DNA of 35,031 bases from a virus (Duplodnaviria > Heunggongvirae > Uroviricota > Caudoviricetes): the IMG/VR virus record IMGVR_UViG_638341082_000010; one strand, written 5' to 3'. The notes below the pieces were generated by a model that saw nothing but the letters and a program-made list of their open reading frames with translations, did not search any database and was not told the origin of the DNA. A program made the position numbers and the translations under genes. Each line of letters begins with the position of its first letter. The stretch's first letter is position 1. Positions 2,802 through 9,510 of this stretch are shown here, in pieces.

Positions 2802-2894
2802 CGATACAAATAAAACATCAAATTAAATAAGAAAACGTGAAAACCATCCGTATTAACGGAGGTATTCGCACACGCAAATAATGGAGATACAAAA

Positions 2895-3305
2895 ATGCAC
2901 GCAAAAGAAGAAGGTATCATCAGAGCACTGAAAGAAATTTCAAAGACAGAAAACGAAGTAGCGAAAAAAGCCATAGCAAATAATCATATGGACGTCGCAA
3001 CCCACACACTGATAGTCGCAAGAGTCACGGCCGAAGCAGCCGAAATTATCGAAAAACAGGATGCTGAACTAACGGTTCTCAGAACACAACCAGTCACCGG
3101 GCTGGATTTGTCTAACACCGGACGCCTTATTTACACAATTGGCTCGGAGCCACAGCAATACACCATTATCGCCGGATTACAGGATAAATACCTGATCACT
3201 CCTCACCCCATAAGGGAATCAGAAATTCTGACAAATCTCCGCCTGATAGAGCGCTCTCAAGTCGCATTCATTGATGACGCACAGCGCACCGTATTTAACG
3301 CATAG
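2895..3305 (+). CDS. Hypothetical early protein
   Basis: 136-aa ORF with GGAG RBS upstream. Confidence 0.55.
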   Translation: MHAKEEGIIRALKEISKTENEVAKKAIANNHMDVATHTLIVARVTAEAAEIIEKQDAELTVLRTQPVTGLDLSNTGRLIYTIGSEPQQYTIIAGLQDKYLITPHPIRESEILTNLRLIERSQVAFIDDAQRTVFNA

Positions 3306-3328
3306 GGTTACTGGACAAAGGGGGCGCA

Positions 3329-3532
3329 ATGGCAATTAAACGTTTTTCCGTCATTCGTTTCACATCCAGAGGGCGTGAATACGAAGTTGACGAACGGCTG
3401 ATTAAAACGCTCGACCGTCACCGTTCGCAACCTGACGCGCATCACATTTATCTCACTGACGACACTTACTTCTGCGCCACCAACGTGGTGCAGGTGAACC
3501 TTATCCGACAGGTACAGGAGTCACGCAGATGA
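3329..3532 (+). CDS. Hypothetical early protein
   Basis: 67-aa ORF with AAGGGGG RBS; stop overlaps the next start. Confidence 0.5.
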   Translation: MAIKRFSVIRFTSRGREYEVDERLIKTLDRHRSQPDAHHIYLTDDTYFCATNVVQVNLIRQVQESRR

Positions 3533-3774
3533 CCATTCTGGACTATATCGCCGCCAATCCGGGTTGTAGCGGTGGAGAAATCGCCGCCGCGCTGAATACC
3601 CCAACCACAGCCATTAATGCGGAGTTACGCCGACTCTGGCGCAGCGGTTCAGTCATAAGAAAAGAGCGCAAAACAGGCGGTCGCTTTTCTTACCAGATAA
3701 ACCCGATGCCGTTCGGGTGCGGCAATCCACTTACCAACATGTTAAACCAGCTACTGAAGGAAGTCAGAGCATGA
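3529..3774 (+). CDS. Small putative winged-helix DNA-binding protein
   Basis: 81 aa, translationally coupled; helix-turn-helix-like core GGEIAAALNTPTTAINAELRRL. Confidence 0.45.
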   Translation: MTILDYIAANPGCSGGEIAAALNTPTTAINAELRRLWRSGSVIRKERKTGGRFSYQINPMPFGCGNPLTNMLNQLLKEVRA

Positions 3775-3893
3775 GCACCATCAACCATCAGGAACTACGT
3801 GAACTGGCGACTGCCGTGCAAAGAATGTCTACCCAAAAATCACTGCCATTCCGTGTGAGCCCTGTCCGGCAGGTACAGGAGTCACACGGATGA
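3771..3893 (+). CDS. Small ORF, 40 aa, translationally coupled
   Basis: ATGA overlaps at both ends; C-terminus RQVQES repeats the C-terminus of the 3329..3532 product. Confidence 0.3.
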   Translation: MSTINHQELRELATAVQRMSTQKSLPFRVSPVRQVQESHG

Positions 3894-4090
3894 ACAGAAG
3901 GAGAATTACACGCAGACATCGCCGCACACGCCTGAGCTCCCCGCCAACACTAAAGGAACTCATTCAAAGCGAGATCGGTGATTTCTTCGCTGGATTTGGA
4001 TCACCAGGCGAACCAGAAACACCAGAAGCGATGCAGCGCGAACTCACGATGCGCATCGACAACGTTTTCGATTTTTTCCTTAACCAGTAA
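3890..4090 (+). CDS. Hypothetical early protein
   Basis: 66-aa ORF, coupled start. Confidence 0.45.
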   Translation: MNRRRITRRHRRTRLSSPPTLKELIQSEIGDFFAGFGSPGEPETPEAMQRELTMRIDNVFDFFLNQ

Positions 4091-4104
4091 GGGAGTAAAT
4101 CACA

Positions 4105-4656
4105 ATGAAACTCAAACCAATGGGTACGCCTGGTGTGGCTCCGGCACATGTAAAGCCATGGACACAGCAGGAGGATGAACTTTTAGCCACGTTATACCAC
4201 TCCCACACAGCGCCGGAGCTGACAAAGCACTTTCAGAGAACCGAGTCAGCAATACGAAGCCGCATCCGTCTTTTGCTCTCTCAGGGGGTTATTCACGCCA
4301 AACAAACTCCACTGAGTACAAAAGAACTCAGCATGCTCATCAGGAATCGCCACACAAAAACCATCCGGGAACTCGCGAATGAGCTGGGGCGCTCGCCATC
4401 CACGGTAGAACTGAACCTGAGAAAAAGAGGGTATCGGTTCAGGAAATACGGGGAACTCCACCACAGAACCAGATACAGCGATCACCTGGTGGAGCTGGTA
4501 ACTGAACTGCGTGATGAGAAGGGGATGACATTCAGCGAAATCAGGAAGCACATCCGGGACACGACCGGGATATCCCTTAAAAGATGGGTCCCCGCCAGGC
4601 TTTACGCACGATATACCGCCGCTGATACCGTGCTTTGCGAACTACTACCGGACTGA
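4105..4656 (+). CDS. Putative DNA-binding protein with three tandem HTH-like repeats
   Basis: 183 aa; strong RBS AAGGGAG; three repeated basic helical segments. Confidence 0.5.
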   Translation: MKLKPMGTPGVAPAHVKPWTQQEDELLATLYHSHTAPELTKHFQRTESAIRSRIRLLLSQGVIHAKQTPLSTKELSMLIRNRHTKTIRELANELGRSPSTVELNLRKRGYRFRKYGELHHRTRYSDHLVELVTELRDEKGMTFSEIRKHIRDTTGISLKRWVPARLYARYTAADTVLCELLPD

Positions 4657-4776
4657 GTAACCACTATGTACACACAAAAAAACCGCTTGCCATGCCGCAA
4701 TCAGTCAGGTTACATTTCCGCTGCACCTCACAAAACGGGTGCCGGGTTTCGCAGCCTGCTGACAAACATAGCGCAC

Positions 4777-4797
4777 AACCGCGCCAGCGGTTTTTTT
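4777..4797 (+). terminator. Candidate intrinsic terminator (AACCGC-GCCA-GCGGTT then T7)
   Basis: GC stem followed by a 7-T run, read from sequence. Confidence 0.4.
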
Positions 4798-4976
4798 GTG
4801 CGTACTGTATCGCCACGTTTTTTTCGCACACGAATTATGGCGGGGCGTACGGGGCCGACTTCGGTCGGGCCGGGTTCTATGTTTGCCGGTACTGCGAACC
4901 TCGTACGTCTCGCCACCCACAGTTTCGCAGCTCTGGATGGTGAGTTTTCAAAACTTACACACATAGAGGCCACACC

Positions 4977-5651: not shown

Positions 5652-8474
5652 ATGACGACAGAGTACATCAGGGACTGGCAACAACCGCGCCACGCAGTGG
5701 GGCGTGAAGGAACGGGGATCCCCGCACCTGAATCCGCGCTTTCCTCCTGGCTGGATGCCTACCGGGCAGAGAACGAGCGCCGACAGGAAAAGGCTGATGC
5801 GGCGTTCTCCGCCACGCCGCTGGGCAACCTGATTAATAAAAGCCTGGATGCACAGGAAAAACAGGACAAAACTATCACACTGGCAGGAGACGTCAGAAAA
5901 CAGGCACGCGGCGCGGTGGATGAAGCCATGGCCTCGCTGCGCCTGCTGCCGTCCTATCTGCGCGATCCGCTTATTCGCCACCTCTCCTTCCTGCGCAAAA
6001 AACAGGAAGCCGATCGCCGGAAAGGCAAAAAGAGCTGGCAGGCGGAACGCTATGCACGCGGAACCCTGCGCAAAATATTCGAACGTCTGGATCGCACTGA
6101 CGGACGCTGGCTGACACCGGGTTATCGCTCCCTTGCCGGACGCGAACGCCTGGACGATTTGCTTTACCTGCCGCAGCTCAACAAACACCAGATACAGACG
6201 CTGGCCACCATGACGGCGGCGATGTTCAGCAGCACCTTCGAAAAACTCTGCGATGGCTTTGGCGCGACCGATGGCGAACTGACCATGGATGTAACGCTGA
6301 AGACGTATCAGATGCTGGCCCGCATGGCGTTACACCTGCACATCATGCCTCCACATTATGACGCACTGACAACAGATAAAGACCGGAGGAACGAACCGGA
6401 CACGGAGCTGCTGCCGGGCGCAGTCCTTCGCCTGACCTGTGCGGAATGGTGGAAACGCAAACTGTGGCTGTTACGTTGCGAGTGGAGAGAAGAACAACTC
6501 CGCGCCGCCTGTCTGGTTTCCAGAAAAACATCGCCCTATCTGAGCCAGGGCGCATTAAGCGAGTTTCGCGCACAGCGCGAGAAAACACGCGATTTCCTGA
6601 AAAGTTTCATGCTGGAAAATGAAGACGGGTTCACGATTGATCTCGAGACGGTGTATTACGCGGGAGTAAGTAACCCGGTTCACCGTAAGGCAGAAATGAT
6701 GACCACCATGAAGGGGCTGGAACTTCTGGCCGAAGCCCGTGGCGACAGAGCGGTGTTTCTGACTGTCACCTGCCCGTCAAAATACCACGCAACAACGGAG
6801 AACGGTCATCCGAATCCCAAATGGAACGGGGCCACCATGCGTGACTCCAGCGATTACCTGGTTAACACGTTTTTTGCGGCGGTCCGCAAAAAACTGAACC
6901 GCGACGGTCTTCGCTGGTATGGCATCCGCACGGTGGAGCCTCACCATGACGGCACTGTGCACTGGCATATGATGGTCTTTGCACATCCGGACGAGATTGA
7001 AACCATCGTGTCCCACGTCTGCGATATTGCCATTCAGGAAGACCGCCACGAGCTGGGCGATGACATAACTCCGCGTTTTAAAGCGGAGTACGTCGACGGC
7101 TCAAAAGGCACGCCAACCAGCTACATCGCCACCTACATCGGAAAGAACCTGGACAGCCGCGCCGTGGATGGTATCGACCCGAAAACGGGCAAGCCACGCG
7201 TTGACCACGAAACCGGAAAATCAATGGCCGAGAGCGTGGAGCGCGCCATCGGCTGGGCGCGCCTTCACCGGGTCCGCCAGTTCCAGTTCTTTGGCATCCC
7301 CTCCCGTCAGGTGTGGCGTGAACTGCGCCGCCTTGCCAGCCAGATGGCACGCAACCCGGAAGGCCCGCAACAGCTGAAGGATGACGCAATGGATGCAGTG
7401 CTCGCTGCCGCTGATGCCGGGTGTTTTGCCTCCTACATTGAAAAACAGGGCGGCGTACTTGTTCCACGCAAAGACTACCTGATTCGCACCGCCTACGACC
7501 TCGCAGATGAGCTGAACGATTACGGCGAACAGAGCGTACAGATTTACGGGATCTGGTCACCACTCATCGGGGAGTCTTCCCGTGTGTGCACACATCCGGA
7601 TAACTGGAAGCTGGTAAGACGTAAACCGGAAGCGGAAGACAGCGCCCGCGAAAATGGTTTTGACCTTCAGGGCGGCCCTGCCGCCCCTTGGACTCGTGGC
7701 AATAACTGTCCCCGTGTACAGGAAACGGACAACAACGGGACAGAACAGCCGGAAGAACGGCCAGCACCGTGGCCGCAGCTCCCTGACGGCGTTGAAGTGA
7801 ACGAATGGATGCGCTCACTGAAACGGCACGAACGCCGGGCGCTGATGCGTTCGCTGCGTGACAAGCAGGCAAAAAACAGCAGTGATGAAATGCAGAACTG
7901 GACACAGAGCCGCAAACAGCCACGGCCTTTGCCTGATAACCACGAATTACTCGCTAAAGAATGGCGGGAATCTGCCGAATCTCTCGGCCTGCATATCGGT
8001 GAACAGCAGATGCAGCACCTGTTACGGGGCGGCAGCCTGTACGTTGACGGCAGCATCATTGCACCACAGGGATTTGAAATTGTACGCAAACCGGATACCC
8101 GCCCGGACAGCCGAATCACGCAGCTCTGGCAGCACCTGAGCCGTAATCACGGCGTAAGCAGCACGGAGATCCGCCATAACCCGGTCGCCAGCTATCTGGA
8201 ACAGCTGGGGGCATCAGACCCCGAAGCCGCCGCACGTCTGGCATCCACACTTCAGCAGGACCAGAACACCATGAAAACCCCCGTTACCGTGCTTTCTGAC
8301 ATGCTGCGCGCCATTCGTGACGCAGAGCACGCACAGAGAATCAGTGAAACAACTGAACGCGCCCGCCGCAAAGCAGACCTGCTGCGGGGTGGCCTGACCA
8401 GTAGAAACAAAAAACAGACAGAAACGGGATTCACAAATCCCGTAAATGAGCAAAAAACGCGCCGCGATATATGA
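5652..8474 (+). CDS. A: Rolling-circle replication initiation endonuclease (P2 gpA family) with a long C-terminal extension
   Basis: 940 aa; HUH-type motif VHWHMMVF and paired catalytic tyrosines YIATYIGKN in the central domain. Confidence 0.9.
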   Translation: MTTEYIRDWQQPRHAVGREGTGIPAPESALSSWLDAYRAENERRQEKADAAFSATPLGNLINKSLDAQEKQDKTITLAGDVRKQARGAVDEAMASLRLLPSYLRDPLIRHLSFLRKKQEADRRKGKKSWQAERYARGTLRKIFERLDRTDGRWLTPGYRSLAGRERLDDLLYLPQLNKHQIQTLATMTAAMFSSTFEKLCDGFGATDGELTMDVTLKTYQMLARMALHLHIMPPHYDALTTDKDRRNEPDTELLPGAVLRLTCAEWWKRKLWLLRCEWREEQLRAACLVSRKTSPYLSQGALSEFRAQREKTRDFLKSFMLENEDGFTIDLETVYYAGVSNPVHRKAEMMTTMKGLELLAEARGDRAVFLTVTCPSKYHATTENGHPNPKWNGATMRDSSDYLVNTFFAAVRKKLNRDGLRWYGIRTVEPHHDGTVHWHMMVFAHPDEIETIVSHVCDIAIQEDRHELGDDITPRFKAEYVDGSKGTPTSYIATYIGKNLDSRAVDGIDPKTGKPRVDHETGKSMAESVERAIGWARLHRVRQFQFFGIPSRQVWRELRRLASQMARNPEGPQQLKDDAMDAVLAAADAGCFASYIEKQGGVLVPRKDYLIRTAYDLADELNDYGEQSVQIYGIWSPLIGESSRVCTHPDNWKLVRRKPEAEDSARENGFDLQGGPAAPWTRGNNCPRVQETDNNGTEQPEERPAPWPQLPDGVEVNEWMRSLKRHERRALMRSLRDKQAKNSSDEMQNWTQSRKQPRPLPDNHELLAKEWRESAESLGLHIGEQQMQHLLRGGSLYVDGSIIAPQGFEIVRKPDTRPDSRITQLWQHLSRNHGVSSTEIRHNPVASYLEQLGASDPEAAARLASTLQQDQNTMKTPVTVLSDMLRAIRDAEHAQRISETTERARRKADLLRGGLTSRNKKQTETGFTNPVNEQKTRRDI

Positions 8475-8519
8475 AGCGCGCACAAAACAGGCGAAAACGG
8501 GATTTAAAAATCCCGTAAA
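8422..8519. repeat. Two copies of a 20-bp palindrome (ACGGGATT-N4-AATCCCGT and ACGGGATTT-AA-AAATCCCGT) inside a roughly 40-bp direct repeat
   Basis: Read from sequence; first copy lies in the last codons of A, second about 35 bp upstream of the parM start. Confidence 0.5.
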
Positions 8520-8550
8520 CGATTAATTAATCAACATAAGGAAAAGCGAC

Positions 8551-9510
8551 ATGAAAATTTGTATCGACGACGGCTCCACCAACATCAAGCTGGCATGGAC
8601 TGAGAACGGCGAACGCCGCAACGCCATCAGCCCGAACAGCTTCAAGTCGGAATGGTCTGCGCCGTTCGGTGGCACGCAGCCCGCGAACTACATGCTTGAT
8701 GGCGTGCGCTATGGTTTTGATCCGGTCAGCGATCGCTTTGTCCAGACGACCGACACGCAATACCAGTACAGCGATGTGAATGTAATCGCCATTCACCACG
8801 CGCTGGTCAAATCAGGCATCACACCACAGGAAGTGGATGTGGTTGTTACCCTGCCACTGAGCGAGTATTTCGACACAAACGCACAGCCGGACATGGCCAA
8901 CATCAACCGCAAAAAAGCGAACGTTATGCGCCCGGTGGAGTACCAGAACGGCGAAGCATTCACTATCCGTAACGTGCGGGTTATGCCTGAATCCATTCCG
9001 GCTGGCTTTAAAGCACTGGCTGACATGAGTCCGTTTGAATCCCTGCTGATTGTGGATTTAGGCGGAACCACGCTGGATGTGGCAAAGGTTCAGGGGCAAC
9101 TGGCAGGTATCAGCCAGGTGTTTTGCGATCCACACGTAGGCGTCTCCCTGATGGCCGGTGCCGTGCTGTCGGTGATGGCCGCTAACGGTATGCGTACCAG
9201 TCACCACATCGCCAATACCATTATCGAACATCGCCATGATGAAGCCTGGTTGCGCCAACACATCCACAATGACGCGCATTACGCCAGCCTGATGGCGGTT
9301 ATTCGTGAAAAGGAAGAAACACTGAAACAACGCGTGATCCGCGCGCTGGCGGGTTTTTCGGGTTACGGGCGGGTGATGGTTGTCGGTGGCGGGGCGGAGA
9401 TTGTGGCACCCGCTATCCGCGAAGCCTGCGGAGTTAATGCGACTTTCATCGCGGACGGGGTGCCACAGTTTGCTCTGGTTAATGGGCTGTACGCAATGGA
9501 CAAGGAGTAA
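8551..9510 (+). CDS. parM: Actin-like plasmid segregation ATPase ParM/StbA
   Basis: 319 aa; N-terminus MKICIDDGSTNIKLAW and internal VMPESIPAG, DLGGTTLD, VMVVGGGAE, LVNGLY match the R1 ParM/StbA pattern. Confidence 0.85.
   Translation: MKICIDDGSTNIKLAWTENGERRNAISPNSFKSEWSAPFGGTQPANYMLDGVRYGFDPVSDRFVQTTDTQYQYSDVNVIAIHHALVKSGITPQEVDVVVTLPLSEYFDTNAQPDMANINRKKANVMRPVEYQNGEAFTIRNVRVMPESIPAGFKALADMSPFESLLIVDLGGTTLDVAKVQGQLAGISQVFCDPHVGVSLMAGAVLSVMAANGMRTSHHIANTIIEHRHDEAWLRQHIHNDAHYASLMAVIREKEETLKQRVIRALAGFSGYGRVMVVGGGAEIVAPAIREACGVNATFIADGVPQFALVNGLYAMDKE

Follow-up and report, generated by a model that had tools for sequence, protein, structure and literature searches.

The early region of the prophage analysed here contains the same gene-junction sequence twice, and the most probable reading of this repeat is that the first copy (J) is simply the ordinary end of a small early gene, g3459, and that the second copy (J') is a displaced J segment produced by recombination between alternative early-region arrangements. 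The window, meaning the whole 35,031-nt stretch of DNA that was analysed, is a P88-like prophage of the P2 family (Xuanwuvirus, Peduoviridae). It encodes an integrase (1-1023) and a C-type repressor (1057-1386) on the minus strand, a Cox-family protein (1454-1780), an HTH protein of 183 aa (4105-4656) and a replication endonuclease of 940 aa (5652-8474); a run of small early genes follows the Cox-family gene. The nearest phage record is Citrobacter phage Shae_phiSM, with 95.8% identity over 2850-4700, and the chromosome of E. coli TW10828 carries a 100% identical copy of 3771-4104.

The preliminary description had reported a 28-bp cassette occurring twice, 361 bp apart, and both its coordinates and its pattern were borne out. 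The first copy (3505-3532) reads CCGACAGGTACAGGAGTCACGCAGATGA and the second (3866-3893) reads CCGGCAGGTACAGGAGTCACACGGATGA, with 25 matching positions out of 28 and an exact 16-nt core, CAGGTACAGGAGTCAC. When the degenerate pattern was searched allowing up to three mismatches, only these two matches were found in 35 kb, and none of 100 dinucleotide-shuffled sequences yielded two matches; a search of the 35-kb window with the core again returned just the same two copies. The similarity between J and J' is therefore non-random and the repeat is real. A repeat finder extended it to 42 nt (3494-3535 against 3855-3896, 83%), the longest unbroken identity between the copies being 16-21 nt. Both copies are read in the frame that ends in ...RQVQES, both carry AGGAG 8 nt upstream of an ATG (3516-3520 and 3877-3881), and both end in an ATGA stop/start overlap, at 3529-3532 and 3890-3893, which joins ORFs 3329-3532 and 3529-3774 in the first case and ORFs 3771-3893 and 3890-4090 in the second. 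An SD sequence located 5-10 nt upstream of the start and inside the preceding ORF, combined with a stop/start overlap, is the arrangement by which translationally coupled genes are recognised, and it is present at both copies.

Copy 1 corresponds to the last ~12 codons and the stop of g3459 (3329..3532, + strand), a 67-aa early gene that matches phrog_3459 over its full length (E=7e-43) and has orthologues in Shae_phiSM, P88, Chuche and E. coli prophages. J (3494..3535, + strand) is thus the native 3' end of g3459, and its ATGA leads into a marR-like winged-helix gene (3529..3774, + strand; 81 aa; Pfam MarR_2/HTH_24; phrog_1687). Copy 2 is built differently. J' (3855..3896, + strand) consists of a displaced g3459 tail followed by the AGGAG and the ATGA, and it provides both the stop of one ORF, ORF1, and the ribosome-binding site and start of the next, geneB. 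ORF1 (3771..3893, + strand; 40 aa) begins in an ATGA overlap with marR, ends at the ATGA of copy 2 and is a chimera, in which residues 1 to ~30 are an Ea22-like N-terminus and the last ~10 (PVRQVQESHG) are the g3459 tail. The earlier statement that each copy comprises the RQVQES end of a small gene, an AGGAG and an ATGA consequently stands for the sequence elements, but the ORF at copy 2 is this chimera and represents no independent gene family.

Profile comparisons with PHROG families placed ORF1 at positions 1-30 and geneB (3890..4090, + strand; 66 aa) at positions 34-99 of phrog_4144, a family with a length of 99 residues, the two parts lying in different reading frames. No single ~99-aa ORF spanning the whole phrog_4144 profile is present in the window. 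A single Ea22-like gene of 98-99 aa occupies this site in Shae_phiSM, P88, Entero_P88_23 and E. coli CMZE027. Judged by its sequence, J' is a piece of the g3459 end out of its native context, which splits an Ea22-like gene into the predicted 40-aa ORF1 and 66-aa geneB. In a large protein database, ORF1 occurs as a 40-41-aa protein in only three clusters, and no longer protein carrying the ORF1 allele was found there.

A census of the gene architecture at ~190 related loci revealed several arrangements around the junction. Type A, with the order g3459-J-marR-Ea22 (99 aa), was found at 89 loci, and at 44 further loci g3459-J-marR is followed by a different gene. Type B, g3459-J-geneB, accounts for 41 loci in IMG/VR, and type C, the type of the window with both J and J', accounts for 15. 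In phage Chuche, in the E. coli prophage L005 and in the 41 IMG/VR contigs, g3459 is joined to a geneB homologue through the same junction, without marR and without the Ea22 N-terminus. After the identical ...GGAGTCACGCAGATGA, type A continues into the marR-like gene and type B into geneB, and the sequences diverge right after the ATGA. Among 5426 complete E. coli genomes, type C was found in 16 and the Ea22 N-terminus in 978; the junction of the subtype B-iii, to which L005 belongs, was found in 10 E. coli records, and more distant type B alleles in ~190 E. coli genomes.

SD sequences with ATGA overlaps are common here (the operon has them at 2688-2691, 3529-3532 and 3771-3774, among others), and this frequency is the one observation that would favour an origin of J and J' as chance or convergent initiation regions. 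Such an origin, or alternatively a paralogy of the two upstream genes, is extremely improbable: the exact 16-nt core, the 25 of 28 matches, the common frame and the shuffles refute chance; paralogy was ruled out by the profiles, as only the last ~10 residues are common and the N-terminus of ORF1 is Ea22-like; and type B shows a physical link between g3459 and geneB.

When L005 was aligned to the window by blastn, the left alignment stopped at 3532 and the right alignment started at 3855, and the single L005 junction aligned to J as well as to J'. The 361-bp module that lies between the repeats (3533..3893, + strand), composed of marR, the Ea22 N-terminus and J', is thus present in type C and missing in type B-iii; the marR-like gene is missing in type B prophages. 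A segment flanked by repeats, alongside a relative that has one copy of the repeat and no segment, is what identifies an indel flanked by direct repeats. L005, L137 and the 10 E. coli records share the order g3459-J-geneB, with flanks 97-99% identical to the window. For L005, identity to the window reaches 99% in orf136, 99% in g3459, 99% in the 5' part of geneB and 97% in 3976-4045, and the type A phage Shae_phiSM is 97-98% identical to the window in marR and in the HTH gene. On a kilobase scale the type C and type B-iii prophages are not near-isogenic, with an identity of just 90-95%; the values of 97-99% are local, applying to a few hundred nt on either side of the module. Type C occurs on at least two backbones, which carry a 246-nt or a 267-nt marR and differ in their downstream genes, and the repeat spacing is 382 bp in the type C prophages with the 267-nt marR allele (L214 and L215). 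This presence on different backbones indicates that the ~230-nt type C segment spread by recombination.

The preliminary description had interpreted the junction as a conserved linker that allows the modular exchange of small early genes, and had proposed that related prophages be aligned to see whether cassettes are swapped exactly there. The interpretation is borne out in part, as modules do differ exactly at these junctions: the junction is found in relatives at the boundary between cassettes, types A and B diverge immediately after its ATGA, and the L005 alignments end and begin at the repeats. The inference of a dedicated linker, that is, a portable 28-bp block of homology for the exchange of small early genes, akin to the 'short conserved boundary sequences' proposed for lambdoid phages, is nevertheless unlikely. 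The exact switch of downstream partner at the ATGA between types A and B, the 361-bp module bounded by two copies and the lower variability of third codon positions in J (0.122, against 0.212 in the gene body) would agree with it. However, J occurs solely behind g3459 or as a relic. Alignments show it kept at the orthologous place in all type A, B, C and D relatives; it is present in ~190 relatives, in each case behind g3459; and among the ~190 related loci of the census it was found at no other gene boundary. The occurrences of the core in fetched loci (n=126) give the same picture, since the phage-related ones all lie behind g3459 or are a relic of J', the remainder being unrelated chance matches.

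Nor is J a conservation island. Its 28 nt have a diversity of 0.104, against 0.105 for the body of g3459, in 34 distinct g3459 alleles that were retrieved through the downstream protein, so that the sample was not chosen on J; the quieter third positions are expected from the embedded SD sequence and start. Efficient RecA-dependent exchange usually requires ~23-27 bp of identity, and the unbroken identity of 16-21 nt between J and J' falls below this. No hybrid J/J' alleles were found in IMG/VR, where the J'-specific right half occurs only in 9 type C contigs, and the type B-iii junction is J-like throughout. Furthermore, the variable segment stands between full conserved sequences, g3459 to its left and the C-terminal part of Ea22 to its right, which offer ample homology for exchange. 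Copy 2 itself did not come from an exchange at a linker: its left edge is an illegitimate join at GTGA(A/G)C inside two coding sequences, and the copy splits a gene that is intact in relatives. According to the citations in PMC3029335 and PMC2327257, the short conserved boundary sequences of lambdoid phages have been proposed to recur between different modules and to serve as the substrate for homologous exchange. The likeness is that of a short sequence at a gene boundary where relatives switch neighbours; the difference is that J stands behind one gene only and is not specially conserved, and that copy 2 came from an illegitimate join.

The left breakpoint of the displaced segment was located at a GTGAGC microhomology (3855..3860, + strand) by alignment and translation. 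At this join the unsplit Ea22-like gene of CMZE027, which among the 5426 E. coli genomes has the unsplit N-terminal allele closest to that of the window (86%), reads ...CGCGTGAGCTTAC..., and the g3459 tail reads ...GGTGAACCTTAT...; over a longer stretch, CMZE027 reads ...CGCGTGAGCTTACAACC..., the window ...CCGTGTGAGCCCTGTCCGG... and the g3459 tail ...CAGGTGAACCTTATCCGAC..., and it is the comparison of these three sequences that places the join at the GTGA(A/G)C microhomology. In the leftmost 11 nt of the 42-nt repeat, the resemblance to Ea22 and that to the g3459 tail are about the same. On the right side, GATGA is common to J, J' and the unsplit gene (CTGGATGAGCTGGAG), and the start of geneB in type B, ATGAGCAGGAG, is identical at 10 of 11 positions to an internal ATGAGCTGGAG of the unsplit gene. 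Further right, homology switches at approximately 4040..4055 (+ strand), near 4046: to the left of this point the window resembles the type B-iii prophage L005 (97-99%), and to the right it resembles the type A phage Shae_phiSM. An unsplit parent with the exact Ea22 N-terminal allele of the window was found neither in the fetched loci nor in the 5426 E. coli genomes nor in the large protein database; an unsplit Ea22-like gene reading ...AVQRMSTQKSLPFRVS..., if it existed, would fix the left breakpoint.

From these homologies we infer an order of events. At the end of g3459, J, with its SD sequence and overlapping ATGA, would couple the translation of the next gene to that of g3459. The simplest account would be an out-of-register exchange between type A and type B, in which the left part of a type A phage was joined, at the GTGA(A/G)C microhomology, to a type-B-like segment consisting of g3459 tail, J and geneB, and the sequence then returned to the type A backbone by homologous exchange near 4046, within the C-terminal part of Ea22. 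The left join would accordingly be illegitimate and the right crossover homologous, and the displaced segment would consist of the final ~10-12 codons of g3459 together with the AGGAG and the ATGA. Four outcomes would follow from such an exchange. The Ea22-like gene would have been split into the chimeric 40-aa ORF1 and an intact geneB; J' would serve as the initiation region of geneB, with ORF1 presumably relaying ribosomes from marR; J and J' would form direct repeats around the 361-bp marR module, which could be lost or gained as a unit; and J', after the duplication, would have gained five transitions that turned a weak fold into a hairpin of about -30 kcal/mol.

Alternatively, J' may have arisen by intragenomic ectopic conversion, in which a patch of ~30 nt of J was copied into the Ea22-like gene through GTGA(A/G)C and GATGA, and a later deletion between the repeats would then give type B. 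The direction may likewise run either way, with type B-iii as parent of type C or as a product of deletion from it. Type B alleles are far more diverse than those of type C (13-18 differences in 82 nt, against 0-1), which points to type B being, as a class, the older one. Between J' and the B-iii junction 5 of 33 positions differ, against ~1-3% in the adjacent geneB, and this discrepancy would be accounted for more readily by a recent origin of B-iii through a deletion that left J in place.

The displacement left behind a downstream half, geneB, whose product combines an Arg-rich N-terminus (MNRRRITRRHRRTRL) with an Ea22-like C-terminal half (positions 34-99 of phrog_4144). Its sequence suggests that geneB is the 3' ~60% of an Ea22-like gene, fused to the junction ATG one base out of frame, and alignment shows that it regains the original frame ~15-27 codons on, through indels. 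The geneB ORF is found in 60 loci, as 26 distinct alleles in three diverged groups. Its N-terminus, M[S/N]RRRITRRH[R/H]RT, is upheld through synonymous changes of Arg codons, and variable sites at the first, second and third codon positions number 5/11/16 in codons 1-28 and 6/7/19 in codons 29-60. As far as can be judged from such substitution patterns, geneB is probably a real small gene under coding constraint.

An opposing reading takes 3771-4090 as a scrambled Ea22-like pseudogene, in which the ORFs and the repeat are functionless. The NCBI pipeline (PGAP) does annotate 3771-4090 as one 'frameshifted' pseudogene in type C E. coli genomes, one of them identical to the window over the segment, and its flags for the region are 'frameshifted' or 'incomplete'; moreover, ORF1 has just 40 aa, with non-synonymous variation in its tail (3871 and 3873). 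We consider this reading quite unlikely, because geneB with its own SD sequence and ATG is kept in 60 loci across three diverged allele groups, with synonymous changes of Arg codons and third positions that vary most, because type B phages have geneB as their sole version, because the initiation region that the patch supplies is complete and correctly in frame, and because type C persists on different backbones. The annotation as a frameshifted pseudogene in E. coli genomes would then mask a conserved small gene. No model in Pfam or NCBIfam matches ORF1 or geneB, and none provides a name for g3459, ORF1, geneB or the unsplit Ea22-like proteins. A programmed -1 frameshift to a fused Ea22-like protein was also considered, geneB being read at -1 relative to ORF1 and CCAAAAA standing 10 nt before the hairpin described below; it was ruled out by a TGA at 3857-3859 in the geneB frame, and no slippery site was found between 3860 and 3890.

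A strong hairpin is predicted over copy 2 (3850..3890, + strand). Its arms (3850-3865 and 3875-3890) are 16 nt long and form 14 pairs with one internal 2-nt mismatch, enclosing a 9-nt loop (3866-3874), and the stem covers the GGA of the AGGAG and the first base (A) of the ATG. The RNA from 3840-3900 has an MFE of -30.2 kcal/mol (z=-5.98), which none of 200 shuffled sequences equalled; the equivalent stretch at J reaches -13 kcal/mol (z=+0.17) and has no significant structure. Within 3861-3893, J' differs from J at five positions (3862, 3864, 3869, 3886 and 3888), all of them transitions, and each stabilises the fold, so that the predicted energy passes from -16.8 kcal/mol for a notional ancestor, composed of the left flank of the window and the J sequence, to -30.2 kcal/mol. 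Equal stabilisation was obtained with 0.06% of random sets of five transitions (P=0.0006) and with none of 5000 arbitrary sets of five substitutions. In 20 type C copies, representing 5 distinct sequences, 12 of 275 sites vary; the 9-nt loop contains 3 of them, and the 32 stem positions are invariant; the probability that all three variable hairpin sites should be in the loop is ~0.008, a value that rests on these three sites. A scan of the + strand from 3850-3900 detected no intrinsic terminator, the hairpin being followed by UGAACAGAAGGAG with no U tract, and neither a terminator nor a promoter was found at copy 2.

Hairpins that sequester an SD sequence and are opened by upstream translation are well known, as is coupling through ATGA overlaps, the RNA phage MS2 being among the textbook examples. 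Both copies resemble that system in the ATGA overlap and in the AGGAG 8 nt upstream of the start, and J' alone adds a stem over part of the SD sequence and the first base of the start. Here the hairpin is confined to the derived arrangement, the native junction having none, and the coupling is predicted. The pattern fits a selected structure that would make translation of geneB depend on ribosomes arriving from ORF1.

The five transitions may reflect either selection, whether for tight coupling, for damping of geneB translation or for breaking the identity of the repeats, or template switching at a quasipalindrome. The latter process, known from E. coli, can perfect inverted repeats without selection (PMC7202029), and the J' changes are similar in that a cluster of substitutions perfects an imperfect inverted repeat. 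They are dissimilar in that they lie on both arms, in opposite directions, and in that the central 2-nt mismatch over the SD sequence was left uncorrected. Given changes on both arms and an uncorrected mismatch, template switching would have to have occurred at least twice, and selection explains the pattern equally well.

If the hairpin is taken as the primary feature, J' would be a selected regulatory RNA that gates the translation of geneB and is possibly recognised by the Arg-rich N-terminus of the geneB product, J having supplied the raw material. The fold stability (z=-5.98), the five of five substitutions relative to J that favour pairing, the invariant stems and variable loop in 20 copies and the conserved ARM-like N-terminus of geneB all agree with this. 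Even so, we regard it as doubtful: the stems are identical in all type C copies, which precludes covariation; the hairpin is missing from type B phages that have the same geneB; template switching can perfect inverted repeats without selection; Rfam 15 gave no match at E<=1 within 3300-4200 on either strand; and an interaction between an ARM and the hairpin is pure conjecture. The most specific form of this idea, a selected RNA switch that would close the ribosome-binding site of geneB unless the 40-aa relay ORF is translated and that might be bound by the MNRRRITRRHRRTRL head of geneB (an autoregulation of the ARM-peptide/hairpin kind), is very unlikely. Were it true, a P2-family phage would possess an autoregulatory loop with a loose resemblance to N-boxB of the lambdoid phages, and the Arg-rich head of geneB would be a new peptide, created where the junction ATG was fused out of frame in the middle of an Ea22-like gene.

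For the displaced J segment itself, the closest published parallel is found in the Cluster I mycobacteriophages Island3 and Brujita. Gene 68 of Island3, which Brujita lacks, shares its ~18 C-terminal codons (~50 bp) with gene 67 (PMC3029335, Pope et al. 2011), and the authors, who considered deletion versus insertion undecidable, compared the case to recombination at boundary sequences (PMC3029335). Common to both systems are a repeated gene end beside an extra gene and a relative with one copy. In our case, by contrast, a recognisable Ea22-like gene is split by the second copy within it, the repeat, at 28-42 nt, is shorter, the microhomology at the left join measures 4-6 nt, and the copy has since evolved a strong hairpin. 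Models of phage mosaicism, as summarised in PMC2327257 and PMC3029335, invoke illegitimate recombination at novel joints, homeologous recombination and short boundary sequences. Our findings show no essential difference from illegitimate or microhomology-mediated recombination as described there: the 4-6-nt joint lies inside coding sequence, a functional arrangement survives, and homologous or homeologous recombination then carries the flanks to other backbones. The event belongs to the ordinary traces of phage mosaic evolution and reveals no new mechanism; what is unusual is only that a hairpin evolved rapidly and directionally over a duplicated ribosome-binding site.

The case is a well-resolved further instance of such evolution in a phage of the P2 family, a family that is usually regarded as genetically rather homogeneous (PMC3448106). 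Its particular features are that the scar splits a recognisable gene, that it delivers a full initiation region to the downstream half and that a hairpin was added later. It thereby provides a base-resolved example of how a mosaic joint originates, in which a join at a microhomology of 4-6 nt moved a translation-initiation cassette into another gene and gave rise to a new two-ORF arrangement and to direct repeats around a regulator-gene module. As an additional observation, a scan of genome contigs with g3459 returned three loci only, in E. albertii, in Salmonella and in a contig labelled 'Vagococcus'.

In at least 40 relatives, exemplified by loci L086 and L038, the gene that follows the marR-like winged-helix gene (3529-3774) begins with the same ATGAGCACC as the window at 3771-3779, and directly after it these relatives turn to the unrelated sequence ATGAGCACCTCCAACTGCCGG... 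This switch is a further mosaic breakpoint, lying a few bases from the ATGA stop/start overlap. A single host genome, IMG genome 2711768053, was also observed to hold prophages of both type C, the arrangement of the window with both copies of the 28-bp junction, and type B-iii, in which the 67-aa gene g3459 is joined to geneB through one junction copy without the 361-bp marR module (L020/L132 and L137; contigs _000016 and _000017). The two arrangements thus meet in one cell, where they could recombine.

The first residues of the 66-aa geneB, M[S/N]RRRITRRH[R/H]RT[R/H] (window 3890-3970; also L004, L005 and L129-L175), are conserved and rich in arginine; their arginine codons change synonymously in all allele groups while the stretch itself is retained. 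This start resembles arginine-rich RNA-binding motifs. In automatic annotation the geneB locus appears as a pseudogene, either frameshifted or partial.

Two other repeats were observed in the window. An inverted repeat of 23 nt (4668-4690 and 4783-4805; 91% complementary, 92 nt apart) is located in a non-coding gap of approximately 400 nt 3' of the HTH gene, and it includes a hairpin that resembles a terminator and carries a T7 run (4777-4799, + strand); gene content at this gap varies among relatives, with P88, for example, carrying an SPFH-domain gene. A second 42-nt direct repeat (83%) places one copy, 8408-8449, in the final codons of the replication endonuclease gene, whose stop is at 8474, and the other, 8481-8522, in the spacer ahead of a 319-aa ORF (8551-9510; MKICIDDGSTNIKLAW...). 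Each copy contains a 20-nt palindrome, ACGGGATT(C/T)A(C/A)AAATCCCGT, and the palindromes may be paired stem-loops, or sites bound by a protein, at a further module boundary.

Finally, a g3459 homologue with 84% identity occurs on a 226-kb contig (NZ_JBQPOM010000071.1; L127) whose genome is labelled as the Gram-positive Vagococcus sp., which probably reflects contamination or mislabelling, with enterobacterial sequence as the source.
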